DNA from: a virus
Lineage: Duplodnaviria > Heunggongvirae > Uroviricota > Caudoviricetes
Length of the DNA stretch: 57,518 nucleotides
Virus record (IMG/VR): IMGVR_UViG_2861048470_000006
Reading direction: 5' to 3' (one strand)
Shown here: one piece after another, positions 4,042 to 48,974 of the stretch
Numbering within the stretch: the stretch's first letter is position 1
Layout of the letters: the number at the start of each line of letters is the position of its first letter
Made by a program: the position numbers and the translations under genes
The notes under the pieces: generated by a model
Told to the model about the DNA's origin: nothing
The model's input: the letters and a program-made list of their open reading frames with translations, nothing else
Database searches by the model: none

Positions 4042-4099
4042 CCCACAAAAAAGCCCTCCTGAACCGGCGGGCTGTCATAACACTGTGTTACCTGGCTAA

Positions 4100-4699: not shown

Positions 4700-4766
4700 A
4701 ATTACCTCTCGCTTTTCTGCAATAAAAAAGGCGCCATTTCTGGCGCCCGTATTGGGGTTATAAAAT

Positions 4767-8162: not shown

Positions 8163-8222
8163 TCCTCACGCTCCATAAACGACAAAACCGCCCGGAGGCG
8201 GTTTCACATAAAACATTTTGCA

Positions 8223-9505: not shown

Positions 9506-9510
9506 GGGAT

Positions 9511-10209
9511 TTACTGCGAAAGTTTGTTAATGGAAAGGAAGCCGCCAAAGTTGCCGACGTTATTGCGGAACTTACAACCGCTCAGGCATTTGCTGCATTT
9601 ATCCTTCGTGATATCGGACGTTGGCTGGTCATATTCATCCGCGACAGCCGGACCGCTATAACCGCACTCGTCACCGCGATAGGTCCAGGTGCAGGTGTTG
9701 GCCAGCATGATACGTCCCGGAAAAACAGCGCCATCCGTTTCCGTCGGCGTGGACAGTACAAAGGAGGCACTCACCGCGCTCAGTTCGCTGCACTGCTCAA
9801 TGCGCCAGCGGCTGATCACCTCCTGCTCCGGATCGGCATAACTGTTTCCGTTGACGAAGTTCACCGCATCCAGAAAACGGGCGTAAACCTTACGCCGGAC
9901 CACCGTTCCGCCGACCAGACTCTGCATATCTTCCGCCATCCCGGTGACCATACCGTACAGGTTAGAAACCGTCAGCGTGGGGCGCGTACTGGTGCCTTTG
10001 CCATTCAGTTCAAAACCGCTCCCCTGAATGGGATACGGCTGATACTGTCGCCCCTGCCAGGTGACCGGCTCACCTTTTTCGTTCTGCTCATTACAGAAAA
10101 AATAACGTTCTCCACCGACCTCTGTCAGGTCGATTTCCCAGAGCACCACGCTGGCCGACTGCTCCGCACGGGTGCATTCATTCAGTGTTTCCTGCCGGAT
10201 ATCCTGCAT
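9511..10209 (-). CDS. L: minor tail protein L
   Basis: 232-aa ORF matching lambda gpL; C-terminal Cys cluster. Confidence 0.9.
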   Translation of the reverse strand: MQDIRQETLNECTRAEQSASVVLWEIDLTEVGGERYFFCNEQNEKGEPVTWQGRQYQPYPIQGSGFELNGKGTSTRPTLTVSNLYGMVTGMAEDMQSLVGGTVVRRKVYARFLDAVNFVNGNSYADPEQEVISRWRIEQCSELSAVSASFVLSTPTETDGAVFPGRIMLANTCTWTYRGDECGYSGPAVADEYDQPTSDITKDKCSKCLSGCKFRNNVGNFGGFLSINKLSQ

Positions 10210-10538
10210 CAGTTCACCACCTGTTCAAACTCTGCGCTGAACTCAACACGCAGCATACTGACCCGCGACGACCATTTTGCGCAGGTCACCTTTATCTGCC
10301 GCCACTCATAAGGCGGCGTCCACAGAAAGGATTTCCAGCCCCCGTGCTCTTCCAGAAACGACTCCAGTACCGTGGCCTCCTCACGGGGGACAGAAAGCGT
10401 CACGCTGTACGTTTTCAGGTTGGCATTCAGCCCGGCAGGCGCTCGCTGGGAATAGCCATCACCAAAGCGCACCTTTCTTACAGAAGGGACCGAAGCCACA
10501 TCCATACCGGGTTTCACTTTCCAGCGGAAGGTCTTCAT
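10209..10538 (-). CDS. M: minor tail protein M
   Basis: 109-aa ORF matching lambda gpM; 1-nt overlap with L. Confidence 0.9.
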   Translation of the reverse strand: MKTFRWKVKPGMDVASVPSVRKVRFGDGYSQRAPAGLNANLKTYSVTLSVPREEATVLESFLEEHGGWKSFLWTPPYEWRQIKVTCAKWSSRVSMLRVEFSAEFEQVVN

Positions 10539-14769: not shown

Positions 14770-15447
14770 ATGTCCATCATTTTTAATGGACACTATCGTA
14801 TGAAACACCGGACCTGGATCACTGAAGCTTTACGTCTTCACTTTGAAGAACATTTACCCCGGGTTGTGGCCGGGCGTCGCCTGGGTGTACCAAAATCAAC
14901 AGTTTGTAGTATGTTCGTGCGCTTTCGGAGAGCTGGCCTTTCGTGGCCTTTGCCCGCAGGCATGTCGGAGCAGGAACTTGATGCCTGCCTTTACGGACAA
15001 TTTTCCACGGTACCAGTCGTACGTCCTGAAAGCACCGTTATATCCGAAGCCCCCGTGGTAAAAAAACGTCCCCGGCGGCCCAACTTCCCTTATGAGTTTA
15101 AAATCGCCTTAGTGGAGCAGTCACTGCAGCCCGGAGCCTGTGTGGCGCAGATCGCCCGGGAAAACGGAATCAACGATAACCTGCTCTTCAACTGGCGCCA
15201 TCAATACCGGAAAGGTGGCCTGCTGCCTTCCGGAAAAAATATGCCGGCACTGCTTCCCGTGACGTTAACGCCGGAGCCGGATAATAAAATCCCGGCCCCC
15301 GCACAGGAACCAGAGCAGATAAATACACCGCCCGACAGTCTGTGTTGTGAGCTGGTTCTGCCGGCCGGAACTCTCAGGCTTAAAGGTAAACTGACGCCGG
15401 CGTTATTACAGACACTTATCCGCGAAATAAAAGGGAGCAGCCACTGA
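14770..15447 (+). CDS. IS66-family accessory protein OrfA with extra N-terminal HTH-like extension
   Basis: 225-aa ORF; C-terminal half (RPRRPNFPYEFK...NDNLLFNWRHQYRKG) aligns with OrfA of the second IS66-family copy at 43197. Confidence 0.75.
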   Translation: MSIIFNGHYRMKHRTWITEALRLHFEEHLPRVVAGRRLGVPKSTVCSMFVRFRRAGLSWPLPAGMSEQELDACLYGQFSTVPVVRPESTVISEAPVVKKRPRRPNFPYEFKIALVEQSLQPGACVAQIARENGINDNLLFNWRHQYRKGGLLPSGKNMPALLPVTLTPEPDNKIPAPAQEPEQINTPPDSLCCELVLPAGTLRLKGKLTPALLQTLIREIKGSSH

Positions 15448-15794
15448 TGATATCTCTCCCTGCAGGTTCGCGTATCTGGCTGGTTGCAGGTATCACCGAT
15501 ATGCGAAATGGCTTTAACGGCCTGGCATCAAAAGTTCAGAACGTCCTGAAGGATGACCCGTTCTCCGGACACCTGTTCATCTTCCGCGGACGCCGGGGTG
15601 ACCAGATAAAAGTGTTGTGGGCTGACAGTGACGGACTGTGCCTCTTCACCAAACGCCTGGAGCGGGGCCGCTTCGTCTGGCCAGTCACCCGTGACGGCAA
15701 GGTGCACCTTACTCCGGCTCAGTTATCCATGCTTCTTGAAGGTATCAACTGGAAGCACCCGAAACGAACGGAACGCGCTGGAATCCGCATATAA
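15447..15794 (+). CDS. IS66-family OrfB (TnpB-like)
   Basis: 115-aa ORF, ~75% identical by eye to the OrfB at 43595; conserved [16 protein letters not shown]. Confidence 0.85.
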   Translation: MISLPAGSRIWLVAGITDMRNGFNGLASKVQNVLKDDPFSGHLFIFRGRRGDQIKVLWADSDGLCLFTKRLERGRFVWPVTRDGKVHLTPAQLSMLLEGINWKHPKRTERAGIRI

Positions 15795-15813
15795 CCCGTT
15801 GTAAAGTGAGGAT

Positions 15814-17385
15814 ATGGACACCTCACTTGCTCATGAGAACGCCCGCCTGCGGGCACTGTTGCAGACGCAACAGGACACCATCCGCCAGATGGCTGAATAC
15901 AACCGCCTGCTCTCACAGCGGGTGGCGGCTTATGCTTCCGAAATCAACCGGCTGAAGGCGCTGGTTGCGAAACTGCAACGTATGCAGTTCGGTAAAAGCT
16001 CAGAAAAACTTCGTGCAAAAACCGAACGGCAGATACAGGAAGCACAGGAGCGAATCAGCGCACTTCAGGAAGAAATGGCGGAAACGCTGGGTGAGCAATA
16101 TGACCCGGTACTGCCATCCGCCCTGCGCCAGTCTTCAGCCCGTAAACCGTTACCGGCCTCACTTCCCCGTGAAACCCGGGTTATCCGGCCGGAAGAGGAA
16201 TGCTGTCCTGCCTGTGGTGGTGAACTCAGTTCTCTGGGATGTGATGTGTCAGAGCAACTGGAGCTTATCAGCAGCGCCTTTAAGGTTATCGAAACACAAC
16301 GTCCGAAACAGGCCTGTTGCCGGTGCGACCATATCGTGCAGGCACCAGTACCTTCAAAACCCATTGCACGCAGTTATGCCGGAGCGGGGCTTCTGGCCCA
16401 TGTTGTCACCGGGAAATATGCAGACCATCTGCCGTTATACCGCCAGTCAGAAATATACCGTCGTCAGGGAGTGGAGCTGAGCCGTGCCACACTGGGGCGC
16501 TGGACAGGTGCTGTTGCTGAACTGCTGGAGCCGCTGTATGACGTCCTGCGCCAGTATGTGCTGATGCCCGGTAAAGTCCATGCTGATGATATCCCCGTCC
16601 CGGTCCAGGAGCCGGGCAGCGGTAAAACCCGGACAGCCCGGCTGTGGGTCTACGTCCGTGATGACCGTAACGCCGGTTCACAGATGCCCCCGGCGGTCTG
16701 GTTCGCGTACAGTCCGGACCGGAAAGGTATCCATCCACAAAATCACCTGGCCGGTTACAGCGGTGTGCTTCAGGCCGATGCTTACGGTGGTTACCGGGCG
16801 TTATACGAATCCGGCAGAATAACGGAAGCCGCGTGTATGGCTCATGCCCGGAGAAAAATCCACGATGTGCATGCAAGAGCGCCCACCTACATCACCACGG
16901 AAGCCCTGCAGCGTATCGGTGAACTGTATGCCATCGAGGCAGAGGTCCGGGGCTGTTCAGCAGAACAGCGTCTGGCGGCAAGAAAAGCCAGAGCCGCGCC
17001 ACTGATGCAGTCACTGTATGACTGGATACAGCAACAGATGAAAACACTGTCGCGTCACTCAGATACGGCAAAAGCGTTCGCATACCTGCTGAAACAGTGG
17101 GATGCACTGAACGTGTACTGCAGTAATGGCTGGGTGGAAATCGACAACAACATCGCAGAGAACGCCTTACGGGGAGTGGCCGTAGGCCGGAAAAACTGGA
17201 TGTTCGCGGGTTCCGACAGCGGTGGTGAACATGCGGCGGTGTTGTACTCGCTGATCGGCACATGCCGTCTGAACAATGTGGAGCCAGAAAAGTGGCTGCG
17301 TTACGTCATTGAACATATCCAGGACTGGCCGGCAAACCGGGTACGCGATCTGTTGCCCTGGAAAGTTGATCTGAGCTCTCAGTAA
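15814..17385 (+). CDS. IS66-family transposase OrfC
   Basis: 523-aa ORF with N-terminal leucine zipper, CxxC...CxxC zinc-finger and DDE core, parallel to ORF at 43992. Confidence 0.9.
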
Positions 17386-31409: not shown

Positions 31410-31558
31410 GGATCAGTAAGCGTAACTCTGGTAGGCTCACTCTGCTTTTGCGCTAAAGCAGTGGGCCGTGGTTCGCTTGTGACCAGTAAGCATGAGCGAA
31501 TGGCTGGCAGGTGCTACCAACACCCACCAGCCGCCCATTTTCACAAATTAAAAGCCCT

Positions 31559-32009: not shown

Positions 32010-33293
32010 ATGACAGCAGAAATAGCCGTATTTAACAAGACCGCAGTAGCTTTAGCCGCAGATTCAGCTGTAACGATTTCTGGAGGCGGCAAACATAAAA
32101 TCTATAATGGCGCTGAAAAGCTTTTCGCTCTCACTAAACATCATCCTGTAGGTTTGATGGTATATGGAACTGGTGATCTCTGCACAGCTCCATGGGAGCT
32201 TATCATTAAGGCTTATAGAAAGGATTTAGGCTCTAAATGTTTTGACTCTTTGGAGGAATATGCTGAGGATTTCTTCAATTATCTACAGTCAGCTAAATCA
32301 ATCATCACACCAGGTATGCGTGAGGCTCATCTTTATCACTTCCTGAGCGAGATTGTATTCAGCATGCTTGTTGATGCTTTTTCTGAAGGTCTCGAACCAA
32401 CATATCTCGTTAACTTCGATAAGAATCAATTTGTTACAGACCTCACGAATTATTGCAACGATCTCCTTACAAAATTATCTGATATTAATTACTTTGATGG
32501 TTTTACTCCGGATGATGAACAAGCAGCCCAAACCTATGCTTCATCAATTACCCAACGCATCATTGCTCAAAAGTTTAGTGACTTTGATTCAATATCCATA
32601 ACTCCACAGTTGACAAAAGCAGTTAGTGATGTATTGGCAGCTATGATATGCAAGCAAAGTGATATTGGTTCCGTCTCTGGGATTGTGATTGCAGGTTATG
32701 GCGATAAAGACTATTACCCTAAAGTATTATCATATGAAGTTTGTGGCTTCTTTAATGATAAAATAAGGAAAACCACAGATGCTGACAAGTGCTGCATCAC
32801 TCCTAATTGCGGCGTGACTCCCTTTGCGCAAGAGGATGAAGTTTCTGCTTTCATGCAAGGAGCTAGTTCACATCTTATCCAAAATCTTCATGCTGAGTAT
32901 CAACGTTCTATCGGCGATTTACTTGATGGTATTGATTCAGTAATCACAGATTTGGTGCCCACTTCAGATATCGAAGGAGCCAAGGATGCTATAGTTGATG
33001 TAGTGCGCAGAACTGTTTCCGATTGCAAGGGGCGAATTGATAGCTTTGTCCGAGAAAACTATGTTGACAAAGTCGTAAATATGATCGAGTTTTTACCCAA
33101 GCAAGATTTAGCTTATATGGCTGAATCATTAGTAAATTTAACCGCTTTCAAGCGCAAGGTCTCCGATGATACTGAAACAGTGGGAGGCCCCATAGATGTT
33201 GCAATCATTTCTAAAGCTGATGGTTTTATCTGGGTTAAACGTAAGCACTATTTTGCAAAAGAACTGAACCATCACTACTTTTCACGGTCATAG
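32010..33293 (+). CDS. 427-aa protein with N-terminal HslV/proteasome-beta-like Ntn-hydrolase region (Thr2) and uncharacterised C-terminal half
   Basis: N-terminus MTAEIAVFNKTAVALAADSAVT aligns position-for-position with HslV [21 protein letters not shown] as recalled; GxGD-like segment GLMVYGTGDL; lower GC than flanks; opposite strand to phage late genes. Confidence 0.5.
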   Translation: MTAEIAVFNKTAVALAADSAVTISGGGKHKIYNGAEKLFALTKHHPVGLMVYGTGDLCTAPWELIIKAYRKDLGSKCFDSLEEYAEDFFNYLQSAKSIITPGMREAHLYHFLSEIVFSMLVDAFSEGLEPTYLVNFDKNQFVTDLTNYCNDLLTKLSDINYFDGFTPDDEQAAQTYASSITQRIIAQKFSDFDSISITPQLTKAVSDVLAAMICKQSDIGSVSGIVIAGYGDKDYYPKVLSYEVCGFFNDKIRKTTDADKCCITPNCGVTPFAQEDEVSAFMQGASSHLIQNLHAEYQRSIGDLLDGIDSVITDLVPTSDIEGAKDAIVDVVRRTVSDCKGRIDSFVRENYVDKVVNMIEFLPKQDLAYMAESLVNLTAFKRKVSDDTETVGGPIDVAIISKADGFIWVKRKHYFAKELNHHYFSRS

Positions 33294-35719: not shown

Positions 35720-35875
35720 TTACTCCTCAGGTTCGTAAGCTGTGAAGACAGCGACCTCCGTCTGGCCGGTTCGGATTCGTACCTCGCAGAGGTCTTTCCT
35801 CGTTACCAGTGCCGTCACTATGACGGTTAAACAGATGACGATCAGGGCGATTAACATCGCCTTTTGCTGCTTCAT
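35720..35875 (-). CDS. hokD: Hok-family type I toxin
   Basis: 51-aa product MKQQKAMLIALIVICLTVIVTALVTRKDLCEVRIRTGQTEVAVFTAYEPEE matches Hok/RelF as recalled; track ORF extends upstream in frame. Confidence 0.9.
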   Translation of the reverse strand: MKQQKAMLIALIVICLTVIVTALVTRKDLCEVRIRTGQTEVAVFTAYEPEE

Positions 35876-36176: not shown

Positions 36177-36381
36177 GACAACCTCCTGTATTGGACGTAC
36201 ACCAGTCCTGATAAATATGAGGCTGTCTCATCATTGATGAGATACAACTATTGGGTATAGTTTCTGTGATTTTGTTCTGTAGAAATGGAACACAACAACC
36301 AGTCACCACCAGTACTTCTTTAAATACGCCAAGTCCGACGCAAGCTAACCTTCTAGTCCGCTTTGAGCGAGAAGCGGAAGT

Positions 36382-36648
36382 ATGAAACTTGTTCTCACCA
36401 CCGATGAAGCATTACAAACAATGCAGTTAGTTTATCAACGGGCAGGATCAGGGCGTACTCTCAAGCGGTTTAAGATTGATAACCTCAGGTACATTCATCT
36501 TGCCACGTTTCATATAGCGTATTTGCGACAGAGTTCATGTGAAGAAACACCGACTACGAGGATGATATTCATGTTGTATTGTTCGGGAAATCACTTCTTC
36601 ATATGGAACCCTCATCACACTTACAAAACCATTATTAACATAGCTTAA
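36382..36648 (+). CDS. hypothetical protein
   Basis: 88-aa track ORF, no recognisable motif. Confidence 0.25.
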   Translation: MKLVLTTDEALQTMQLVYQRAGSGRTLKRFKIDNLRYIHLATFHIAYLRQSSCEETPTTRMIFMLYCSGNHFFIWNPHHTYKTIINIA

Positions 36649-36888
36649 GTGTTAATCAAAATTGAGCCATTCACATTACATTAGGTAAGGTATCTTACTA
36701 AAAATATTGTAATGTTTTGTTTTTAAAGATAAAGATTTCAGGTTGAAAACCAAAAATTTTTAGTTAAAAATATTTATGGTGTATGTAAAAAATGATAAGG
36801 TAGTGATAAGACATAAGTTTGTAAAACACATGTTAAATTTCAATGCTGATGAAAAAGCTTAGCGTTAATCAAAACAGGAGCAAGAAGA

Positions 36889-37719
36889 TTGAAAGTTATT
36901 AGCTTAATCAATATGAAAGGTGGCGTTGGTAAGTCAACATTGGCTACCAATATTGCTAATCATCTTTCAGATAAACTTGGGCAAAAAATATTATTAATAG
37001 ATATCGACCCACAATTTAACGCAACGCAATGTGTAATGGATACAAGCAAATATGTTGCACATATGAAAAGCGGAGGCGATAGCATATGTGATATTTTTTA
37101 TAGTTCAAAAATTCGACTATCTACAATGACTGGTCCTTTAGTTAACACACCTAAAGAATTAGCCGATATAACACCAATTCAATTAAATGATAATTTTCAC
37201 ATTGTTCCCGGAAGCCTTGGGCTATATAAAATTGAAATGAAACCAGGAGAAGGGATAGAAAACAAGCTTAGACGCTTTCTTAAAATCCATGAAAATGACT
37301 ATGATTATGTCATAATTGATACCCCACCAACCCCATCAGTTTGGATGTCCAGCGCATTAATTGCATCTGATTATTACCTCATTCCAGCCAAACCCGATCC
37401 TCTTTCGATCACTGGTATCGATCTATTAGATAGCATTATAAATGAGAAGAGAGAAAATTTCGATCTTAAGATTGAATGTGCGGGCATAGTTTTTAATATG
37501 GTTGAAGGTAATAGTAATTTATATGAGGAAAGTCTTCGTTACTTCAATAATCAAAAACGTTGGCGTAATAAGATCTTTAAATCATATTTGAGCAAACGTA
37601 CTGAGTTGGCAAGAAATCAAACAAGAGGCTTATTTATTAACAATTTAACGGATGAGGATATGAAGTTTTCGCTGTCTAAAATTACTGACGAACTTCTCTC
37701 TAGAGTAGGTGACTTATGA
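36889..37719 (+). CDS. ParA/MinD/Soj-family P-loop ATPase
   Basis: 276-aa ORF, TTG start with AGGAG RBS; deviant Walker A KGGVGKST, DIDPQ and Walker B-like VIIDTPP motifs; very AT-rich. Confidence 0.8.
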   Translation: MKVISLINMKGGVGKSTLATNIANHLSDKLGQKILLIDIDPQFNATQCVMDTSKYVAHMKSGGDSICDIFYSSKIRLSTMTGPLVNTPKELADITPIQLNDNFHIVPGSLGLYKIEMKPGEGIENKLRRFLKIHENDYDYVIIDTPPTPSVWMSSALIASDYYLIPAKPDPLSITGIDLLDSIINEKRENFDLKIECAGIVFNMVEGNSNLYEESLRYFNNQKRWRNKIFKSYLSKRTELARNQTRGLFINNLTDEDMKFSLSKITDELLSRVGDL

Positions 37720-38222
37720 CTGACAAAAAAAATAACTCAAAAGAAATTAAGCAACTGTTAAACTTTTTAGAGGAGTTTTCCTTTATTTCAAAAAAATTAT
37801 CAAGAATCAACTTTATTGAATTACTTCAAGATAGTTATACTGATAATTTAGAAGTTAACGAAAGAAATTCAAAGTCCAAAAAAAATGATATTAAAGGTTT
37901 CCTTGTTGGGTATCTTCCGAGGATTTTATTAGACAAAGATCTCTTCCAAAAAAATAAAGATATAGATGATTTTGCACGCATGTTAGGTATCGAAATCAGC
38001 AGGCCTGAAAAAAGATCTAGAGAGGAAATGATCGGCATAATCGTGTGTGACGTTCACGAGAAAAACTCATCCGATTTAGGTAAGGCTTATAATATTATCA
38101 ATTCAATGTCAAATAACCCTCTAGTTTTGAGTAGAATAAAAGAGAGGAAGAACCTTTCTAGCGCTCAAAATGAGATATATGACTGGAATGAAGTTATAAA
38201 AGATATATTCAATAAGGACTAA
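37716..38222 (+). CDS. hypothetical protein, second gene of ParA-like operon
   Basis: 168-aa ORF overlapping ParA stop by 4 nt (ATGA); Lys/Asn-rich; no motif recognised. Confidence 0.5.
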   Translation: MTDKKNNSKEIKQLLNFLEEFSFISKKLSRINFIELLQDSYTDNLEVNERNSKSKKNDIKGFLVGYLPRILLDKDLFQKNKDIDDFARMLGIEISRPEKRSREEMIGIIVCDVHEKNSSDLGKAYNIINSMSNNPLVLSRIKERKNLSSAQNEIYDWNEVIKDIFNKD

Positions 38223-38224
38223 CA

Positions 38225-38920
38225 ATGTCGAGAGAAGTAAACAGCGATTTCACTGAGTTAGTTACTTATTTCTCTGAATATAAATTAAAAAATGTTTTCG
38301 AGAATATTAACTCAAGAGGGAAAATAAGCATGATACATAAGAGATATTATTCTTTTATGTGCCTTGTTTACTGTTTGTATCATTTCTCCAAGGAGAAAAT
38401 AGACGCCAACTCATTGGAGCGATTGCAAGAAGCTTCATCTGACCTTGGTACAGCTATGTTTATGGTTATAAATGGTGCATACAAACCAGCAAATCTAATG
38501 ATGCGAAGTTATATTGAAAATTCTTTAAAATCAATCGGTTGCTTACTAGATCCTTCAATACTTGAAGAAAAATCATTGTTTAAGGTAATTGAACAAACTG
38601 GGGAACATCCTGTCTTCAAAAAAAATCCTCTACTACATGAAACTTTAAAAGCTGAATACTCTTCGTTATGCAGTCACGTACATACAGCTACTGTAAAAGA
38701 AATGGCTCACATAAAAGCTTTAAATGTTTTTCCCGAAATAGACTTGGTTAAAATAGATAATATTTCGAAGGTGATTGATAAGGTGGTTAAGACTATGATA
38801 TCAACTATCATAAGAATTTTTCCTGATGTTTTCTTTTCCTTTGCACCTGAGTATCGAGAAAAAATCCTCCTTAGCTTAACCTCTGCACAACGAGCCTCAC
38901 TTCATTCCTTAAGTGATTAA
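38225..38920 (+). CDS. hypothetical protein, third gene of ParA-like operon
   Basis: 231-aa ORF 2 nt after previous stop; no motif recognised. Confidence 0.5.
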   Translation: MSREVNSDFTELVTYFSEYKLKNVFENINSRGKISMIHKRYYSFMCLVYCLYHFSKEKIDANSLERLQEASSDLGTAMFMVINGAYKPANLMMRSYIENSLKSIGCLLDPSILEEKSLFKVIEQTGEHPVFKKNPLLHETLKAEYSSLCSHVHTATVKEMAHIKALNVFPEIDLVKIDNISKVIDKVVKTMISTIIRIFPDVFFSFAPEYREKILLSLTSAQRASLHSLSD

Positions 38921-38933
38921 CTAACAAGTATGA

Positions 38934-38966
38934 CATAAAAACTATCCTATTGTGATAGTTTTTATG
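38934..38966 (+). terminator. 13-bp-stem hairpin directly after the three-gene operon (putative terminator)
   Basis: CATAAAAACTATC-ctattgt-GATAGTTTTTATG; coordinates anchored to stop at 38918-38920. Confidence 0.4.
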
Positions 38967-39116
38967 TTCATTAAGATGACTATATCAGGAATTATTGCCG
39001 AATTTTAATTTTCATATTGATTTTACTATCTCTCACCAACTCTTGTAAGTATCCTTCCGCCACAAGCGGACCATGTGCATTTAAATATCTGACCTAACGT
39101 GCCGTAACGCCGCAAT

Positions 39117-39140
39117 GTCCGCTTCTGGCACAAAGCAGAC
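39117..39140 (+). repeat. 24-bp imperfect direct repeat, copy A (GTCCGCTTCTGGCACAAAGCAGAC)
   Basis: 20/24 identity with copy B at 42790-42813; internal dyad symmetry GTCCGC...GCAGAC. Confidence 0.4.
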
Positions 39141-39202
39141 GCCCACTCTCACGCGAATGCTTTGCCCTTGACTTGCCAACAACCGTATCGCTTGCTCCGC
39201 AA

Positions 39203-40495
39203 CTATGGTTTTTTATTAGAATCTTCGCCACTAAATAAATTATAATAAATTGATTTTATTAGATATCTGTCAGAATCTATATGGTCAGCACGAGTAGCAT
39301 GCTCTAATGTTTCAAATGCTAGGGTTTGTGCGGCTTCAGCAAAAATTCCAGGCCAACCCTTACTCAGCATCGACAGTCCTTTAAGGATCCTTATCTGAAT
39401 TTCCCTCATACTGGCACCATCGCGCGCAACAGGTGAGAAAAAGTCTTCAAGTAGATCGTTATTCTGAAGTGGTGCAACATGTACAGAAGGATATTTCACT
39501 TCTATTTCATCAGATTTATTCTGCGCGTAAGCGGAAAGTATACGTACACCTCTGCCAATGACATCAATGGCGGTTCCAGGATCGTTCACTGCGGGGGAAA
39601 GGGCTCGGCAGGCTATTTCGGCCATGACGCTAAGACAAAATCGGGGGTCCTGAGCAAATGAACGTACATCCGAGACAATAATCGTCTCAAGTAAATCGGT
39701 GCTGATTGATGACTCCTGGCCCTGACTCAGGTACAAAACTGGCGTGGACGGATGTATGAAACTGCCCGGCTGCGCCACGAGGTATACATGACGGGGATCA
39801 TTGGTCAGCAGCTTGCTGAGTTTCACCATATCAACATATTCAACATAGCCAATCTTTTTCGGATAAACTGCAACCGTTCCTTTCGGCTGTTCATTGTTCT
39901 CAAGCCATGGATATCCGCCGAGACAGGGATTTCTTGCTCTCGCAATAAATGTTTCGATGGCCGCCTGTTCTACTTTTGCCGTTGTCTCACCAACCCTCCC
40001 CAGAGAGGTCAAATGCTGTATCCAGCGAAGCAATGTGATGAGGATTAAGGCAATGACAACCAGTGTTACAATGAATAAAATGACTCTCCCCCTTTCTCCA
40101 TAAGCTCCCATATTGAGGGCAATAATCCCTACCAGACTGAAGAGAAAAGAACCGATGAAGGTGGCCAGTACATTTTGTGTGGTGACGTCTTCAACAACTA
40201 AACGAGTAGCTCTGGGAGTCACATTAGTAGTGGCTGAACCGTAGGCTGTGACCATGATGCTCAGCGAAAATGTGGTCACTGCCAGCATACTCGATGCCAG
40301 TATGTTCAGAATGTTATCGACTGCTTCCGCACCAACCTTCACGGAAACCGACTCAGGTATCATTGATTTAAAAAGAATTGATAAAAGGGCCGTTATTATT
40401 GCGACAATTGCGAATAACGTTGCCCTGAACCATAGTTTTTTAAATGTCTGCTTCAGCATCCATTTCCAGCGTGAAATCATTCTGCATTCCCTCAT
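39203..40495 (-). CDS. DUF2254-like multi-TM membrane protein
   Basis: 430-aa ORF with N-terminal TM helices and large soluble C-terminal domain; family from recollection. Confidence 0.5.
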   Translation of the reverse strand: MRECRMISRWKWMLKQTFKKLWFRATLFAIVAIITALLSILFKSMIPESVSVKVGAEAVDNILNILASSMLAVTTFSLSIMVTAYGSATTNVTPRATRLVVEDVTTQNVLATFIGSFLFSLVGIIALNMGAYGERGRVILFIVTLVVIALILITLLRWIQHLTSLGRVGETTAKVEQAAIETFIARARNPCLGGYPWLENNEQPKGTVAVYPKKIGYVEYVDMVKLSKLLTNDPRHVYLVAQPGSFIHPSTPVLYLSQGQESSISTDLLETIIVSDVRSFAQDPRFCLSVMAEIACRALSPAVNDPGTAIDVIGRGVRILSAYAQNKSDEIEVKYPSVHVAPLQNNDLLEDFFSPVARDGASMREIQIRILKGLSMLSKGWPGIFAEAAQTLAFETLEHATRADHIDSDRYLIKSIYYNLFSGEDSNKKP

Positions 40496-40543
40496 ATTGC
40501 AGCCGGGATAAATAAATGCCGCCTCTGTGGCGGCATGTTGCTG

Positions 40544-42547
40544 TTAACGAACCAGATGCAGGAAGTGCAGGTGTTTTTCGTACTGGTCCAGTATGTCATT
40601 AATCAGCTGTTCCTGATTCCAGCCCATTACATCATAATTTTGGCCGCCCTCTTTGAGATAGACTTCAGCGCGATAATATCGATGTTGTTCACTCTGCTGC
40701 TCATCATTATCCAGCGCAGCGAGCGCGAAGGTCGGTGAGTTATACCCGCGAAGCCTCACTTCATATATATAATTCAGCTCGTTGCCCAAATCGACTTCAA
40801 GGCGAATACGATCCTCGGCGGCGTCACTGATGTGGCTTATCGTTCCCTGCTTGTTAAGTTCCTCCTGAACCAGCGTCATGGCGGGTTGGATAATGTCGTC
40901 CATAAAACGTTTCACAAGAGAGCGCTTCGGCAAATACGCGATATTGCGTAACCTTCTCTGCCAGGGAATTGGGTTACGTGCAGCCGTAGGAGCAATAGTC
41001 GCCATGCTAAGGCTTTCACGCTTGGTCAAATCCCGACGCAGGGCTTTTAACAGTCCGTATATGGATATTAATAAGATAACTGAGAAGGGCAATGCACTCG
41101 CTATCGTTACGGTTTGCAACGCACTCAGCCCCCCTGCGATCAGCAGGGCAATAGCAACAACGCCCATGAGCAATGCCCAGAAAATTCGCTGCCAGACGGG
41201 CGTGTTTGCCACCCCACCTGATGCCAGAGTATCCACAACCATTGCCCCCGAATCAGCAGACGTTACAAAGAAGACGATGACCATCGCCATTGCAATGAAT
41301 GACAGCACGGAAGAGAACGGGAAATGCTCCAGGAAATTAAACAGGGCAAGCGCAACATCCTGCTGAACGGTATTGGCGAGGTCAGTGGCGCCCTGGTTCA
41401 TGATGAGATAGATGGCGCTGTTTCCAAACACCGTCATCCACATGAGCGTAAAGCCGGCGGGAACAAACAACACGCCAGTCACGAACTCACGAATTGTCCT
41501 GCCGCGGGAAACGCGTGCAATGAACATACCTACAAACGGCGACCATGAAAGCCACCATCCCCAGTATAATAATGTCCAGCCCCCCAGCCAGTTGCTCGAC
41601 TTGGGTTCATACGCGTAAAGGTTGAACGTTTTACTCACCAGTTCCGACAGATAACCACCCGTATTTTCCACAAATGACTTCAGCAGAAGCACAGTGGGAC
41701 CCAGGCACAAGACCAGCGCCAGGAGCAACACCGCCAGGCCCAGATTAAGCTCAGACAGGATGCGTATTCCCTTGTCCAGGCCGGACACCACCGAAATCGT
41801 CGCTAACCCCGTGATGACCACGATCAAAATGACCTGTACCGTTTCATTGATGGGCACGCCGAAAAGATGGTTCAAACCGGCATTCACCTGCAATACACCG
41901 TAACCCAGCGATGTTGCAACGCCAAAGACAGTGCCTATCACGGCGAAGATATCAACCGCGTGGCCTATAGGCCCGTAAATGCGATCGCCGATAATGGGAT
42001 AGAGCGCAGAACGCAGCGTTAAAGGCAGACCGTGACGGTAACTGAAAAAGGCCAGAATCAGCGCCACGATGGCATAAATTGCCCATGCGTGCAGACCCCA
42101 GTGGAAGAACGTCAGGCGCATGGCTTCCTTCGCTGCCGCAACGGTCTCTGGAGTGCCGACAGGTGGCGAAAGATAATGCATCACAGGTTCGGCAACGCCA
42201 AAGAACATCAGGCCGATCCCCATCCCTGCCGAAAAAAGCATCGCGAACCAGGAGTGGTAGCTGAAATCAGGCTGCGCATGGTCTGGGCCCAGCTTTATAT
42301 CACCGTAACGTGAGAGTCCAAGGAACGTGACGCTCAGTAAAATCAGGGCCACAGCAAGTATGTAGAACCAGCTGGCATTCGTGAAGATTTGTTGCTGAAG
42401 TAGTTTAAAATTTTTGTCGGCGACATCCGGGAATACGGCGGCAAAGGCGACAAGAAGGAAAATTAGCAAAGCAGATGTAAAGAATACCGCTTTGTTAACC
42501 TGGCTTGTAGACTTCTTTGGGGTTGTATCATTTTCACTCATAATCAT
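40544..42547 (-). CDS. BCCT-family transporter (BetT/BetU-like choline/betaine transporter)
   Basis: 667-aa ORF; conserved BCCT segments (GDIKLGP, WTLLYWGWWLSWSPFVGMFIARVSRGRTIREF) parallel E. coli BetT as recalled. Confidence 0.85.
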   Translation of the reverse strand: MIMSENDTTPKKSTSQVNKAVFFTSALLIFLLVAFAAVFPDVADKNFKLLQQQIFTNASWFYILAVALILLSVTFLGLSRYGDIKLGPDHAQPDFSYHSWFAMLFSAGMGIGLMFFGVAEPVMHYLSPPVGTPETVAAAKEAMRLTFFHWGLHAWAIYAIVALILAFFSYRHGLPLTLRSALYPIIGDRIYGPIGHAVDIFAVIGTVFGVATSLGYGVLQVNAGLNHLFGVPINETVQVILIVVITGLATISVVSGLDKGIRILSELNLGLAVLLLALVLCLGPTVLLLKSFVENTGGYLSELVSKTFNLYAYEPKSSNWLGGWTLLYWGWWLSWSPFVGMFIARVSRGRTIREFVTGVLFVPAGFTLMWMTVFGNSAIYLIMNQGATDLANTVQQDVALALFNFLEHFPFSSVLSFIAMAMVIVFFVTSADSGAMVVDTLASGGVANTPVWQRIFWALLMGVVAIALLIAGGLSALQTVTIASALPFSVILLISIYGLLKALRRDLTKRESLSMATIAPTAARNPIPWQRRLRNIAYLPKRSLVKRFMDDIIQPAMTLVQEELNKQGTISHISDAAEDRIRLEVDLGNELNYIYEVRLRGYNSPTFALAALDNDEQQSEQHRYYRAEVYLKEGGQNYDVMGWNQEQLINDILDQYEKHLHFLHLVR

Positions 42548-42789
42548 TTATTCCATTAATTAAATCCGCACTGGATAGAAGGTACTACCTCTCACAGAGT
42601 AGCAAAGTTCAACTGGCTATGCGGGATTAATCGGAATGCATGGTGGAATGAGTGCCGATACAAATCATCCTATATTCTAAGGAGTTTTAAGTTACTCAGC
42701 CTGCCAATTACTGGGGCATTTAATTTGTATGATCTGTATCAAAGCTGGGATATAAGTTAAGTGAAGTATATTAGGCACGAATTACCAGC

Positions 42790-42813
42790 GTCTGCTCTTG
42801 GCACAAAGCGGAC
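42790..42813 (+). repeat. 24-bp imperfect direct repeat, copy B (GTCTGCTCTTGGCACAAAGCGGAC), abutting IS3
   Basis: see copy A; last 3 nt GAC are the IS3 target duplication. Confidence 0.4.
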
Positions 42814-42878
42814 TGATCTTACCCAGCAATAGTGGACACGCGGCTAAGTGAGTAAACTCTCAGTCAGAGGTGACTCAC

Positions 42879-43125
42879 ATGACAAAAACAGTATCAACCA
42901 GTAAAAAACCCCGTAAACAGCATTCGCCTGAATTTCGCAGTGAAGCCCTGAAGCTTGCTGAACGCATCGGTGTTACTGCCGCAGCCCGTGAACTCAGCCT
43001 GTATGAATCACAGCTCTACAACTGGCGCAGTAAACAGCAAAATCAGCAGACGTCTTCTGAACGTGAACTGGAGATGTCTACCGAGATTGCACGTCTCAAA
43101 CGCCAGCTGGCAGAACGGGATGAAG
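42879..43125 (+). pseudogene. insE: IS3 orfA (insE) 5' portion, interrupted by nested ISEc8-like element; remaining orfA codons resume at 45568
   Basis: MTKTVSTSKKPRKQHSPEFRSEALKLAERIGVTAAARELSLYESQLYNWRSKQQ... reads through to RDE then hits the IS end; continuation [17 protein letters not shown] found after the nested element. Confidence 0.85.
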
Positions 43126-43196
43126 GTAAGCGTACAGCCTGAACCGTCTGGTCAGAATCTGACAAATTAGACAAAGTGGTGTCCACCAAATAAGTA

Positions 43197-43598
43197 GTGG
43201 GAACCAAAGTGTCAGATATGCAGAAAAATGTGACTCCCGGCAGGCGAAAAGGCTGCCCTAATTATCCTCCCGAATTTAAACAGCAGCTCGTTGCTGCCTC
43301 CTGTGAACCCGGGATATCCATCTCAAAACTTGCTCTTGAAAATGGCATTAACGCCAATCTGTTGTTCAAATGGCGACAACAATGGCGCGAGGGAAAGCTG
43401 CTATTACCTTCTTCAGAGAGCCCCCAGCTACTTCCTGTGACTCTCGATGCAGCTGCCGAACAGCCAGAATCGCTCGCAGAGGACCCGGAAACCCTCAGTA
43501 TCAGCTGTGAGGTAACGTTCCGGCACGGGACGCTCCGCTTCAATGGCAATGTCAGCGAAAAGCTCCTGACTCTGCTGATACAGGAACTGAAGCGATGA
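43197..43598 (+). CDS. IS66-family OrfA
   Basis: 133-aa ORF. Confidence 0.85.
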   Translation: MGTKVSDMQKNVTPGRRKGCPNYPPEFKQQLVAASCEPGISISKLALENGINANLLFKWRQQWREGKLLLPSSESPQLLPVTLDAAAEQPESLAEDPETLSISCEVTFRHGTLRFNGNVSEKLLTLLIQELKR

Positions 43599-43942
43599 TC
43601 CCGTTACCTTCCGGGACCAAAATTTGGCTGGTTGCCGGTATCACCGATATGAGAAATGGCTTCAACGGCCTGGCTGCGAAAGTACAAACGGCGCTGAAAG
43701 ACGATCCCATGTCCGGCCATGTTTTCATTTTCCGGGGCCGCAGCGGCAGTCAGGTTAAACTGCTGTGGTCCACCGGTGACGGACTGTGCCTCCTGACCAA
43801 ACGGCTGGAGCGTGGGCGCTTCGCCTGGCCGTCAGCCCGTGATGGCAAAGTGTTCCTTACGCAGGCGCAGCTGGCGATGCTGCTGGAAGGTATCGACTGG
43901 CGACAGCCCAAGCGGTTGCTGACCTCCCTGACCATGCTGTAA
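43595..43942 (+). CDS. IS66-family OrfB (TnpB-like)
   Basis: 115-aa ORF, 4-nt overlap with orfA. Confidence 0.85.
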
Positions 43943-43991
43943 ATCTCTTTATCCTGGTTGTCACAGAATAAGCCCGGTAAAATACGGGCTT

Positions 43992-45530
43992 ATGAACGAC
44001 ATCTCTTCTGACGACATCTTCCTGCTGAAACAGCGCCTGGCCGAACAGGAAGCGCTGATCCACGCCCTGCAGGAAAAGCTGAGCAACCGGGAGCGCGAAA
44101 TAGACCATCTGCAGGCGCAGCTGGATAAACTCCGCCGGATGAACTTCGGCAGTCGTTCCGAAAAAGTCTCCCGCCGTATCGCACAAATGGAAGCCGATCT
44201 GAACCGGCTTCAGAAAGAGAGCGATACGCTGACTGGTAGGGTGTATGACCCGGCTGTACAGCGTCCGTTGCGTCAGACCCGCACCCGTAAGCCGTTCCCT
44301 GAATCACTACCCCGTGACGAAAAGCGACTGTTGCCTGCGGCGCCGTGCTGCCCGAACTGCGGCGGTTCACTGAGCTATCTGGGCGAGGATACCGCCGAAC
44401 AGCTGGAGTTGATGCGTAGTGCCTTCCGGGTTATCCGGACGGTACGGGAAAAACATGCCTGTACTCAGTGCGATGCCATCGTGCAGGCACCTGCACCTTC
44501 GCGGCCCATCGAGCGGGGTATCGCCGGACCGGGGCTGCTGGCCCGCGTGCTGACCTCGAAGTATGCAGAGCACACCCCGCTGTATCGCCAGTCAGAAATA
44601 TACGGCCGGCAAGGTGTGGAGCTGAGCCGTTCACTGCTGTCGGGCTGGGTGGATGCATGCTGCCGGCTGCTGTCTCCGCTGGAAGAGGCGCTTCATGGCT
44701 ATGTCATGACTGACGGCAAACTCCATGCCGATGATACCCCGGTCCAGGTACTGCTGCCGGGTAATAAGAAGACGAAGACCGGGCGGTTGTGGGCGTATGT
44801 TCGTGATGACCGCAATGCCGGGTCAGCGTTGGCACCTGCAGTGTGGTTCGCTTACAGCCCGGACAGAAAAGGCATCCATCCGCAGACTCATCTTGCCTGC
44901 TTCAGCGGTGTGCTGCAAGCGGATGCGTACGCCGGGTTCAACGAGCTGTATCGCAATGGTGGGATAACGGAAGCTGCCTGCTGGGCTCATGCCCGCCGAA
45001 AGATCCACGATGTGCACGTCCGCATCCCGTCAGCACTGACGGAAGAAGCCCTGGAGCAGATCGGTCAGTTGTACGCCATAGAGGCGGATATAAGGGGAAT
45101 GCCGGCAGAGCAGCGGCTTGCTGAACGTCAGCGAAAAACGAAACCGCTGTTGAAATCCCTGGAAAGCTGGTTGCGTGAAAAGATGAAAACCCTGTCGCGA
45201 CACTCAGAACTGGCGAAAGCGTTCGCATACGCCCTGAACCAGTGGCCGGCGCTGACGTACTATGCAGATGATGGCTGGGCTGAGGCGGACAATAACATCG
45301 CTGAAAATGCGTTGCGGATGGTCAGTCTGGGCCGCAAAAACTACCTGTTCTTCGGTTCGGATCATGGAGGAGAGCGGGGAGCGCTGCTGTACAGCCTGAT
45401 CGGGACGTGCAAACTGAACGGAGTGGAGCCAGAAAGCTACCTCCGCTATGTCCTTGACGTCATAGCCGACTGGTCGATAAACCGGGTCGGCGAACTGCTC
45501 CCCTGGCGCGTAGCACTGCCGACTGAATAA
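43992..45530 (+). CDS. IS66-family transposase OrfC
   Basis: 512-aa ORF. Confidence 0.9.
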
Positions 45531-45624
45531 CACATCCCCGTCAATACGGTTCTTGCTGCACGCTTACGGATGAAGAGCTGGCTATCCTCCAAAAGGCCGC
45601 GACATACTTCGCGAAGCGCCTGAA

Positions 45625-46491
45625 ATGAAGTATGTCTTTATTGAAAAACATCAGGCTGAGTTCAGCATCAAAGCAATGTGCCGCGTGCTCCGGGTGGCCC
45701 GCAGCGGCTGGTATACGTGGTGTCAGCGGCGGACAAGGATAAGCACGCGTCAGCAGTTCCGCCAACACTGCGACAGCGTTGTCCTCGCGGCTTTTACCCG
45801 GTCAAAACAGCGTTACGGTGCCCCACGCCTGACGGATGAACTGCGTGCTCAGGGTTACCCCTTTAACGTAAAAACCGTGGCGGCAAGCCTGCGCCGTCAG
45901 GGACTGAGGGCAAAGGCCTCCCGGAAGTTCAGCCCGGTCAGCTACCGCGCACACGGCCTGCCTGTGTCAGAAAATCTGTTGGAGCAGGATTTTTACGCCA
46001 GTGGCCCGAACCAGAAGTGGGCAGGAGACATCACGTACTTACGTACAGATGAAGGCTGGCTGTATCTGGCAGTGGTCATTGACCTGTGGTCACGTGCCGT
46101 TATTGGCTGGTCAATGTCGCCACGCATGACGGCGCAACTGGCCTGCGATGCCCTGCAGATGGCGCTGTGGCGGCGTAAGAGGCCCCGGAACGTTATCGTT
46201 CACACGGACCGTGGAGGCCAGTACTGTTCAGCAGATTATCAGGCGCAACTGAAGCGGCATAATCTGCGTGGAAGTATGAGCGCAAAAGGTTGCTGCTACG
46301 ATAATGCCTGCGTGGAAAGCTTCTTTCATTCGCTGAAAGTGGAATGTATCCATGGAGAACACTTTATCAGCCGGGAAATAATGCGGGCAACGGTGTTTAA
46401 TTATATCGAATGTGATTACAATCGGTGGCGGCGGCACAGTTGGTGTGGCGGCCTCAGTCCGGAACAATTTGAAAACAAGAACCTCGCTTAG
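45625..46491 (+). CDS. insF: IS3 transposase OrfB (DDE integrase-like catalytic domain)
   Basis: 288-aa ORF; normally expressed as OrfAB fusion by -1 frameshift. Confidence 0.9.
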
Positions 46492-46592
46492 GCCTGTGTC
46501 CATATTACGTGGGTAGGATCAGACAACCACGCTAGCTCTACCCTGTGCCACAAAATGTCAATTTGCATCTGAACTAATGCACTTTAATCTCG

Positions 46593-46763
46593 TCACTTCA
46601 ATAAATACCGAACATCCCCCTGATAAAACGACAATATGCGCTGCATAACTTCGCTCTTCCGGCACTCGCGACAGATTATGTTTAGGCGACTGTCGTAGCG
46701 ACGTATTTCTCCGTCAGGTAATGACCAGATAAGGTCCGGATCAACCACAACCGGTTTCTTCAG
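46593..46763 (-). pseudogene. 3' fragment of a ~140-aa phage replication-region gene split by IS100
   Basis: in-frame continuation (…KLKKPVVVDPDLIW…) of the 5' fragment once one copy of the duplication is removed. Confidence 0.7.
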
Positions 46764-46770
46764 TGTCAAT

Positions 46771-48974
<2,204 letters not shown>

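Follow-up and report, generated by a model that had tools for sequence, protein, structure and literature searches.

The two 24-bp sequences that flank a transporter cassette in a Qin-type lambdoid prophage are probably R-type recombination sites of a gene-cassette system, which has a fixed hotspot between hokD and DUF977 where cassettes would be integrated or exchanged, most likely by a tyrosine recombinase. The 24-mers are shared junctions of a multi-cassette hotspot, and not private ends of the BCCT transporter module that they enclose. Site-specific cassette integration and exchange of an integron-like or pdif-like kind, involving a different enzyme and different sites, is the best explanation of the sequence comparisons described here. 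Positions refer to the window, i.e. the whole 57,518-nucleotide stretch of viral DNA that was analysed.

The gene order in the prophage is hokD, hotspot, DUF977, and three sites split the hotspot into a ParA-like cassette and a DUF2254/BCCT cassette. The last conserved backbone gene on the left is hokD (35720-35875, minus strand), located by mapping the RefSeq annotation of a near-identical ETEC prophage onto the window. The left boundary of the hotspot is an L-type site (36356-36379, plus strand; GTCCGCTT TGAGCGAG AAGCGGAA), an inverted third match to the degenerate site pattern that was absent from an earlier note on this DNA. Cassette 1 (36380-39116, plus strand) has a low GC content (∼32%) and contains an 88-aa ORF, a ParA-like ATPase (36889-37719) and two proteins annotated without a function (37716-38222 and 38225-38920). 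It is joined to the BCCT cassette (cassette 2; 39141-42789, minus strand, 3,649 bp) by the R-type site copy A (39117-39140, plus strand; GTCCGCTT CTGGCACA AAGCAGAC), while copy B (42790-42813, plus strand; GTCTGCTC TTGGCACA AAGCGGAC) forms the right boundary of the hotspot, and is followed in unbroken prophages by the backbone sequence AACCACGCTAG... The earlier note had recognized transporter cargo between the repeats, and Pfam matches were obtained for both genes: a DUF2254 membrane protein (39203-40495, minus strand; 311 bits) and a BCCT transporter (40544-42547, minus strand; PF02028, 662.8 bits). The latter is predicted to belong to the BetT subfamily by its score above the family cut-off (NCBIfam NF007399, 751.8 bits vs 695). 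Three ORFs of ∼427-431 aa in the window, which resemble repeats, are mutually unrelated.

An IS3 had been placed directly after copy B, and its start at 42814 is confirmed. The element (42814-46521, plus strand) is interrupted by a nested IS66-family element (nested ORFs 43197-43598, 43595-43942 and 43992-45530) and is a simple secondary insertion, with a 3-bp duplication (GAC, 42811-42813 and 46522-46524), which overlaps copy B at its end; the RefSeq annotation of ETEC 120899 has an IS3 family transposase at the corresponding place. The backbone restarts with the 3′ part of the DUF977 gene (46525-46763, minus strand), which is 100% identical to locus L005 and 96% identical to L006 directly on the right-hand side of their R sites. 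The gene is broken by a 1,954-bp IS21-family (IS100-like) element (46764-48717, minus strand) with a 5-bp target duplication, its breakpoints being defined by comparison with L006. The replication genes that had been assigned to the right of the segment (46830-48631) turn out to be IS21-family istB/istA (Pfam IstB_IS21, 373 bits, and rve), and the true phage early genes (DUF977, a DNA-binding protein, YdaT and Cro/CI) restart at 46525 and 48718. The IS3, IS66 and IS21 elements are later arrivals with no relation to the cassette system.

Copies A and B, whose positions and letters were verified, are identical at 20 of 24 positions, and the dyad symmetry seen earlier takes the form of an imperfect 8-8-8 palindrome in each. 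The R-site pattern is GTCYGCT-nn-TGGCACA-n-AGCRGAC and its 24-bp consensus GTCCGCT-tt-TGGCACA-a-AGCgGAC, the consensus being partly circular because the loci were collected with the R pattern itself. L and R sites have like arms (GTCYGCT and AGCRGAC), with L inverted relative to R, and their cores (TGAGCGA in L vs TGGCACA in R) differ at two positions. A degenerate pattern that includes both 24-mers has three matches in the window, compared with none in 100 dinucleotide-preserving shuffles. The further inverted pair reported at 39066-39124 is present in its parts (AAGCGGAC at 39066-39073 and the left arm of copy A), and its first member may be an arm of an apparent relic or truncated R-like site (TTCCGC-CACA-AGCGGAC, ∼39055-39073, plus strand, read by eye) in the end of cassette 1.

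A strict grammar holds across 128 related loci, in which cassettes lie in single L...R units or in L-R-L-R arrays with linkers of 15-19 nt; 68 cassette types were distinguished among 114 cassettes. The 120 loci retrieved by the R pattern alone contain 88 L sites (vs none in shuffles), 94% of which have an R site downstream in the matching orientation, a concordance count that allows for the reverse complement of any R site being an L pattern with two mismatches. In 352 pairwise cassette comparisons no inverted cassette was found, which rules out an inversion switch. Site arms segregate with the neighbouring DNA (conditional entropy ∼0, vs 0.6-1.3 bits in shuffled nulls), placing the exchange inside the sites; for the L site, the left arm co-varies with the backbone, and the spacer and right arm with the cassette. 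The shared hotspot backbone, found in more than 2,000 E. coli genomes, extends only up to 36370-36381. No empty hotspot occurs among 1,150 genomes, the minimal version consisting of L, ∼230 bp of filler and R. In the individual E. coli loci examined, sites are found only at cassette boundaries.

The BCCT cassette is 3,649 bp long in 13 of 14 loci and 3,648 bp in the remaining one, and its inner part is invariant while it occurs in at least seven left and at least four right contexts; its boundaries are thus not fixed relative to phage DNA. Three of the right-hand contexts split exactly past GCGGAC. Since the contexts diverge exactly at or inside the 24-mers, these do not belong to a longer stretch of unrelated homology. 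Copy A is a hybrid, with a left arm and spacer that accompany cassette 1 and a right arm (AAGCAGAC) that always accompanies the BCCT cassette. As to recurrence elsewhere with the same boundaries, the block is found in about 1,400 E. coli records, chromosomes as well as plasmids, and 1,371 of 5,426 E. coli genomes contain at least 80% of it. A search for an 'unoccupied' allele lacking the BCCT cassette gave none, and recent excision is therefore not visible. A P2-like phage (L134) and a genomic island (L007) contain the cassette 1 block at 99.9% identity, and their flanks are dissimilar. More generally, cassettes 99.8-99.9% identical are present in a lambdoid phage, at the P2 Z/fun position and in a genomic island, whose backbones are dissimilar over the 200 bp next to the cassette, and identical cassettes are also present on plasmids. 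The P2 Z/fun hotspot, with the tail sheath gene FI on one side and the tail-fibre assembly gene G on the other, is the second common backbone in the data. On plasmids, the BCCT cassette is found close to qnrS1, IS26 and Tn3-family elements. These comparative data, from which recombination is inferred, support the earlier suggestion that the module may be mobilised site-specifically.

We propose that cassettes in the hotspot, bounded by its L and R sites, would be swapped between replicons through paired crossovers (L x L and R x R), or that circles would integrate at a single site; strand exchange would fall within the 24-bp sites, and L x R recombination would presumably not take place. For the DUF2254/BCCT block, the most likely mode of entry is a 3,673-bp circle with the site GTCTGCTCT-TGGCAC-AAAGCAGAC. 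Recombination between this putative circle and the R site that ends the ParA cassette would yield the hybrid copies A and B, copy A combining the left arm of the target with the right arm of the cassette, and copy B the left arm of the cassette (GTCTGCTC) with the right arm of the target. The outer arms of the two copies had been described as cross-complementary, as in paired recombinase sites, and this is the pattern predicted if a circular cassette integrates into an R site.

The search for a cognate recombinase yielded a candidate in related loci, while the window itself contains no gene for it. The 200-aa protein, represented by WP_001752951 and WP_023147793, consists of a catalytic domain only and would act in trans. 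Its fold class is not in doubt: it belongs to the tyrosine recombinase superfamily (PF00589, 64.8 bits vs a cut-off of 27.1). Alignment with XerD matches its HSMRR, GH and RY motifs to HxxR, H and Y, respectively; the first Arg (RGCDL) and the Lys were read off the sequence by eye, without alignment. The protein is 77-92% identical across Gammaproteobacteria. Its gene is consistently linked to sites, in the layout cassette-R*-int-L*-cassette with cassettes on both flanks, and the adjacent sites (R* and L*) have one non-canonical arm. A hairpin and then TGTGCCA-AGCGGAC come after the stop codon in all loci examined, a truncated copy (L279) excepted; an L-type core lies upstream of the gene in nine aligned loci, and canonical R and L sites are found 1-3 kb to either side. 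Relatives with ∼60% identity have the same layout with other spacers, and the linkage is retained from clade to clade (56-92% identity), with the spacers changing accordingly. Other cassettes beside the recombinase gene carry ars, cop or eptA-type genes. This small, highly conserved protein probably runs the cassette swapping. Counting against the proposal, the gene is present in only 876 of 5,426 E. coli genomes (16%), vs the hotspot backbone in more than 2,000. Its absence from the window, the non-canonical arms beside it and the failure to find an empty hotspot or a BCCT-free allele also weigh against it.

The absence of the small recombinase from most hotspot-bearing genomes would be expected if the 24-mers were conserved hairpins with another job (RNA stability, termination or insulation, as in REP-like elements), and if the swaps were made by short-homology recombination (Red/RecET or RecA) that uses the 24 bp as homology, an alternative that we consider unlikely though the best placed of the rivals. 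Lambdoid phages do encode short-homology recombinases. In Alpha-, Beta- and Gammaproteobacteria these hairpins also occur as dispersed extragenic repeats, often just past stop codons, and as RNA they fold with -5 to -12 kcal/mol. However, the hairpins at the 24-bp sites lack a following T-run, and no Rfam family covers the site; a reading as operator or terminator is rejected on the lack of a T-run and on the occurrence of sites at both cassette ends regardless of gene orientation. The two-type, oriented L...R grammar and the lack of inversions would not be expected from generic microhomology, and the same sites delimit cassettes in elements that have no common phage recombination system, namely P2-like phages, ICE-like elements, islands and plasmids. 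The embedding of the recombinase gene between site-like sequences also argues for the proposed site-specific system.

In soil Alphaproteobacteria the hairpin is dispersed in many copies beside ordinary chromosomal genes, with no recombinase within ∼4 kb of the sites. Recombinase relatives of the soil clade retain the post-stop hairpin, while canonical sites are only patchy, and the link between repeat and recombinase in soil bacteria is suggestive. Dispersed hairpins without a nearby recombinase are unusual for tyrosine-recombinase sites, and they could have another primary function or enzyme. The hairpins might be single-stranded DNA substrates of an HUH/Y1 enzyme (RAYT-like or IS200/IS605-like) or of some other enzyme, the 200-aa recombinase being a passenger; we regard this as improbable. 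It would fit the high-copy, clustered, REP/BIME-like sites in some genomes, the several loop classes on identical stems, and the site matches at some contig ends. Clustering of neighbouring ORFs gave only solute-binding-protein paralogs and no such recurrent enzyme, and the sites lack the GTAG motif that is typical of REPs. The linkage of recombinase and sites described above, with spacers changing in step, also favours the tyrosine recombinase over a passenger role.

Least probable, and rejected here, is a MITE-like origin, in which each L...R unit would be a non-autonomous transposon inserted by a trans-acting transposase into a palindromic target (GTCCGCTT/AAGCGGAC): cassette termini (5′-TGAGCGAG...CTGGCACA-3′) are indeed imperfect inverted repeats with TG...CA ends and the outer arms belong to the context, but target-site duplications are absent since the outer arms are reverse complements and not direct repeats, a search of 1,150 genomes gave no empty palindromic target, the sites have no associated transposase, and the BCCT cassette lies between two direct R sites rather than an L/R pair.

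The proposed system of paired L and R sites resembles integrons in its tyrosine recombinase, in its cassette arrays separated by imperfect palindromes with defence genes among the cargo, in the recombinase gene abutting the array beside an atypical site, and in the plausible movement of circular cassettes. A tandem cassette array next to the recombinase gene, which is an integron criterion, is present, as a resemblance only. Unlike integron integrases, however, the recombinase has 200 aa and scores 17.2 and 17.6 bits against integrase cut-offs of 265 and 435. The 24-bp sites with their GTCYGCT/AGCRGAC arms lack a GTTRRRY core and the R''/L''/L'/R' boxes of attC; an R-linker-L composite can fold as a single long imperfect hairpin (-28 kcal/mol), but exchange maps to each site separately. 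Each cassette is bounded by two heterotypic site classes, and the cassettes are situated on both sides of the recombinase gene, are often multi-gene with genes in either orientation, and reside inside phages, ICE-like elements and islands. The pdif/dif modules of Acinetobacter plasmids (XerC/XerD) are similar in being discrete modules with short, oppositely oriented sites, which are shuffled among replicons by a recombinase usually acting in trans. Xer/dif sites are 28 bp long and their arms bind XerC and XerD; the sites described here do not resemble the 11-6-11 XerC/XerD consensus, and the recombinase scores 47 (XerC) and 29 (XerD) bits vs cut-offs of 335 and 330. Among FimB/FimE-type invertases and the shufflon recombinase Rci, FimB and FimE are likewise tyrosine recombinases of ∼200 aa without an N-terminal core-binding domain that act on short inverted repeats, but the present recombinase reaches only 18-27 bits against cut-offs of 221-222, and no inversion turned up in the 352 comparisons. 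In some Proteobacteria (alphaproteobacterial and Nitrosomonadaceae loci) the hairpins resemble REP/BIME elements with RAYTs in being high-copy, clustered extragenic palindromes. The enteric sites, in contrast, come as oriented pairs on either side of mobile cassettes, their linked gene encodes a tyrosine recombinase and not a Y1 transposase, and ORF clustering around the sites revealed no RAYT gene.

The cargo of the P2 Z/fun hotspot overlaps with that of the lambdoid hotspot. The variable cargo of P2 Z/fun and related phage defence hotspots has been described, with neither flanking sites nor a recombinase being mentioned (Rousset et al. 2022, PMC9122126). For the P2 Z/fun hotspot, links to lambdoid prophages, plasmids, ICE-like elements or a conserved recombinase were not found in the literature, and exact-sequence, accession and keyword searches, whose scope did not extend to the text of a 2004 P2 paper, found no description of the cassette system. 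That paper, by Nilsson et al. (2004, MBE 21:1), reportedly proposed site-specific insertion, as its title implies, and may have anticipated the site-specific idea. With a confidence a little short of even, we suggest that this is an uncharacterised, mechanistically distinct integron-like system, in which paired heterospecific 24-bp L/R sites would serve as substrates for a small, highly conserved tyrosine recombinase, and which would drive the turnover of the P2 Z/fun and hokD-DUF977 hotspots and move identical cassettes among phages, plasmids, ICE-like elements and islands across Proteobacteria, the sites having also spread as hairpin repeats in soil bacteria.

Phage hotspots are now a main hunting ground for new anti-phage systems, and their fast turnover is usually ascribed to vague recombination; a defined pair of sites and a candidate enzyme would supply a mechanism. 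A search for L...R pairs would delimit cassettes computationally and offer a direct route to unknown cargo genes, and the two-site, orientation-preserving exchange, which resembles engineered recombinase-mediated cassette exchange, might serve as a tool. Sequence comparison supports a system by which unrelated phages, plasmids and genomic islands come to share transporter and anti-phage genes, and given the resistance gene and mobile elements near the plasmid BCCT copies and the ars, cop and eptA-type cargo, clinically relevant cargo may also move. Such a mechanism would explain the occurrence of identical defence, transport and resistance modules in unrelated phages, plasmids and islands.

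The window is a lambdoid prophage of the Qin/DicB type, of ETEC-like E. coli origin, in which late genes, Q, RusA, DUF968 and hokD (35720-35875) are followed, left to right, by the hotspot region and then by DUF977, a DNA-binding protein, YdaT, Cro/CI and the repressor. Reading the window sequence confirms the two 24-mers of the earlier note, GTCCGCTTCTGGCACAAAGCAGAC at 39117-39140 (copy A) and GTCTGCTCTTGGCACAAAGCGGAC at 42790-42813 (copy B), and the cargo described between them, minus-strand genes for a DUF2254 membrane protein and a BetT-type BCCT transporter (the BCCT cassette). A degenerate pattern fitting both copies has three matches in the window, versus none in 100 shuffles. The third match (36356-36379, reading GTCCGCTTTGAGCGAGAAGCGGAA on the plus strand) is an inverted relative. 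A separate low-GC block at 36.4-39.1 kb carries genes for a ParA-like ATPase and two uncharacterised proteins (the ParA cassette). A 427-aa ORF of unknown function (32010-33293; RefSeq 'hypothetical') runs on the opposite strand, with the Q antiterminator on one side and a DNA methyltransferase on the other, and looks like a separate moron; the palindrome that precedes it at 31440-31463 (CTCTGCTTTTGCGCTAAAGCAGTG) is outside this site family.

Later insertions were defined by comparing the window with intact relatives, and three are reported. An IS3 element with a nested IS66-family element (splitting it at 43150-45600) occupies 42814-46521 as a simple insertion. It starts directly after copy B, as had been noticed, and its 3-bp duplication GAC (42811-42813 and 46522-46524) overlaps the last three bases of that copy, in the right arm of the site. 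The backbone restarts at 46525 (AACCACGCTAG...) with the DUF977 gene, which is split by an IS100-like element (46764-48717, 1,954 bp, 5-bp duplication); the supposed replication genes next to the segment are in fact IS21-family istB/istA (46830-48631). The IS insertions in the hotspot region are secondary events without relation to the repeats. The related ETEC strain 120899 carries IS3 at the identical spot without the nested element, and IS100 elsewhere. A second IS66-family element (14770-17385; ORFs of 225, 115 and 523 aa) breaks the late (head/tail) region, so the prophage is probably defective; in a related ETEC prophage, an ISCro1-type IS66 element truncates the terminase gene.

About 1,400 E. 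coli records, chromosomes as well as plasmids, contain the BCCT block, with similarity to the window beginning at about 39106 and ending at 42813. Its boundaries are variable: at the right end, three contexts (IS3 in the window, relBE on plasmids, other chromosomal DNA) split exactly after ...AAAGCGGAC, the end of copy B, and at the left end contexts part within copy A. The ParA block found elsewhere runs between the third site and copy A (36356-39143), and in more than 2,000 genomes the match to the window is confined to the phage backbone and stops inside the third site. Motif mapping in related prophages gives a fixed layout of backbone ...TAACCTTCTA, an L site (core TGAGCGA, as in the third site), cargo, an R site (core TGGCACA, as in copies A and B) and AACCACGCTA... 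backbone, with additional sites between gene blocks. On the resistance plasmids p720632_72 and pECO-6dfa (2257-10216 of the retrieved loci), a whole segment lies among IS26, TnAs1, ISKpn19 and qnrS1. It comprises, in order, an L site, a gene for a 269-aa protein, the recombinase, a gene for a 476-aa protein, an R site, the BCCT cassette, another R site, relB and truncated relE; in pECO-6dfa its left part has given way to IS1 and another tyrosine recombinase, of 325 aa. The segment resembles a captured fragment of a prophage hotspot.

The same grammar holds in 120 viral contigs retrieved by the R pattern alone. These contain 88 L sites (0 expected in shuffles), 83 of which have an R site in the same orientation downstream, at a median distance of 1.6 kb. 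Arrays take the form L-R-L-R, with partly conserved linkers of 15-19 nt. The consensus R site is GTCCGCT-tt-TGGCACA-a-AGCgGAC, a profile that is partly circular because the R pattern served as the search key, and the consensus L site is GTCcGCT-t-TGAGCGA-ga-AGCgGAc; apart from two core positions, R is essentially the reverse complement of L. Clustering reduces 114 cassettes to 68 types. One backbone pair hosts many different cassettes, and one cassette recurs in different backbones. None of 352 comparisons has a cassette inverted relative to its sites, and none of 1,150 genomes has an empty hotspot, the smallest version being L and R with about 230 bp of filler between them.

Arm and neighbour covariation indicates that exchange takes place within the L/R sites. 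The left arm and spacer of R sites are fully set by the left-hand cassette and the right arm by the right-hand neighbour, while in L sites the left arm tracks the backbone, and spacer and right arm track the cassette; conditional entropies are about 0, versus 0.6-1.3 bits in shuffled nulls. The BCCT cassette measures 3,649 bp in 13 loci and 3,648 bp in a fourteenth, and its inner sequence is invariant (TGGCACA-AAGCAGAC ... GTCTGCTC-TTGGCACA). The left arm, together with one or two further bases, varies with at least seven neighbours, and the right-hand contexts number four. Copies A and B thus match the hybrid sites that circle integration would leave. A circle carrying GTCTGCTCT-TGGCAC-AAAGCAGAC that integrated at the R site ending the ParA cassette would yield both.

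A candidate for the cognate recombinase that the earlier note proposed to look for occurs in some hotspots and is absent from the window. It is a 200-aa 'site-specific integrase' consisting of the tyrosine-recombinase catalytic domain alone, and has more than 8,000 relatives. Of 5,426 E. coli genomes, 876 carry it, and it is 77-92% identical among Escherichia, Proteus, Providencia, Pantoea, Idiomarina, Pseudoalteromonas, Cycloclasticus and Rheinheimera. It reaches none of the curated NCBIfam subfamily cut-offs (XerA/C/D, FimB/E-type invertases and integron integrase are far below); its closest solved relative is XerD (E ~1e-3; HxxR, H and Y aligned). After the stop codon, nearly every locus examined has CAGGGCTG-N5/6-CAGCCCTG-TGCCAA-AAGCGGAC, an R-type core with one canonical arm, which a truncated copy (L279) is without. 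An L-type core lies upstream (nine aligned loci). On either side, the gene has canonical R and L sites at a distance of 1-3 kb, which places it in a linker position: cassette, R*, int, L*, cassette, where R* and L* are the atypical sites beside it. Among the adjoining cassettes are PD-T7-1, Thoeris-like TIR, SIR2, SMC-like, ars and eptA-PAP2-dgkA blocks. The arrangement is preserved in relatives of 56-63% identity, where the spacers differ and include the TGACCCA and GGGGGTA loop classes.

Two other settings of the recombinase were seen. In the Idiomarina sp. X4 chromosome (L254, 8001-15534), the recombinase lies directly after gcvP and is followed by a PhoQ-like two-component system, an eptA-type phosphoethanolamine transferase, PAP2, dgkA and a sulfatase, up to an L-type site, possibly a cassette of polymyxin-resistance-type genes. 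In marine ICE-like contigs (L249-L253, about 4900-8650), the recombinase gene has on one side an ars operon, with an R-like half-site beyond it, and on the other side copper/cus genes; here the recombinase is embedded in the cargo region of an ICE-like element.

The main reason to keep alive the rival view, that the sites serve another function, is REP-like behaviour elsewhere. In soil Alphaproteobacteria, Nitrosomonadaceae and a gammaproteobacterial MAG, the exact 24-bp R pattern occurs as an extragenic hairpin that is dispersed and often clustered. It sits beside ordinary chromosomal genes; identical stems carry several loop classes, and no recombinase lies nearer than 4 kb. Hosts among L008-L127 include Pseudolabrys, Xanthobacteraceae and Hyphomicrobiales (e.g. 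L037 523-546 and 1625-1648; L029 1919-1942 and 2816-2839); the hairpins are typically downstream of PF04392/Bug-type solute-binding genes, and a second often follows 16-18 nt later with the same stem and a different loop (TTCGGGGGTAA or TTTGACCCAA). Recombinase relatives of ~211 aa form a soil clade and have an arm-bearing hairpin after the stop codon, with patchy canonical sites nearby. The dispersed hairpins may be recombinase sites that have spread, or a sign of another function. Besides this behaviour, the weak points of a recombinase mechanism are the absence of the enzyme in cis and of any observed excision polymorphism.

Ordinary homologous recombination does not fit: cassettes 99.8-99.9% identical end to end sit in backbones without detectable similarity in the adjacent 200 bp on both sides. 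In a P2-like myovirus backbone, the cassette lies between tail sheath gene FI and tail-fibre assembly gene G, the classical Z/fun defence hotspot. At that position (L134, 6773-9557), L and R sites again form the boundaries, and 99.9%-identical cassettes are shared with the lambdoid hotspot; in phage Wphi (L333), orf44 lies there between an L site (4564-4587) and a degenerate R site (about 5720-5745). The BCCT cassette also occurs on resistance plasmids, and the ParA cassette in a chromosomal island (L007, 1-6210), beside a type I R-M system with darT/darG (DarTG) inserted between hsdS and hsdR. Cassettes carry defence or candidate-defence genes (PD-T7-1, PDC-S39, PDC-S15/FRG, two TIR types) or metabolic and transport genes (HAD hydrolase; MFS, GGCT and LysR; BCCT and DUF2254), besides the ParA-like trio.

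Precise variable junctions, hybrid sites and identical cassettes in unrelated backbones support the original suggestion of a site-specifically mobilised cassette. By its title, the paper of Nilsson et al. suggests prior art for the idea of site-specific insertion at Z/fun; the phage-hotspot literature examined covers variable cargo and does not describe the L/R sites or the small recombinase. The defining tests exclude an integron (integrase model, attC), Xer/dif (sites and enzymes) and a Fim-type switch (family model and inversion), and the L/R system therefore lies outside those families. With moderate confidence, we favour site-specific cassette integration and exchange at L/R sites by the candidate small tyrosine recombinase, acting in trans, as the most likely mechanism. 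In function the system is akin to integrons and Acinetobacter pdif modules, and in form to engineered cassette exchange that uses heterospecific sites; it probably works like the integron, Xer/dif and Fim-type families without being a member of them.
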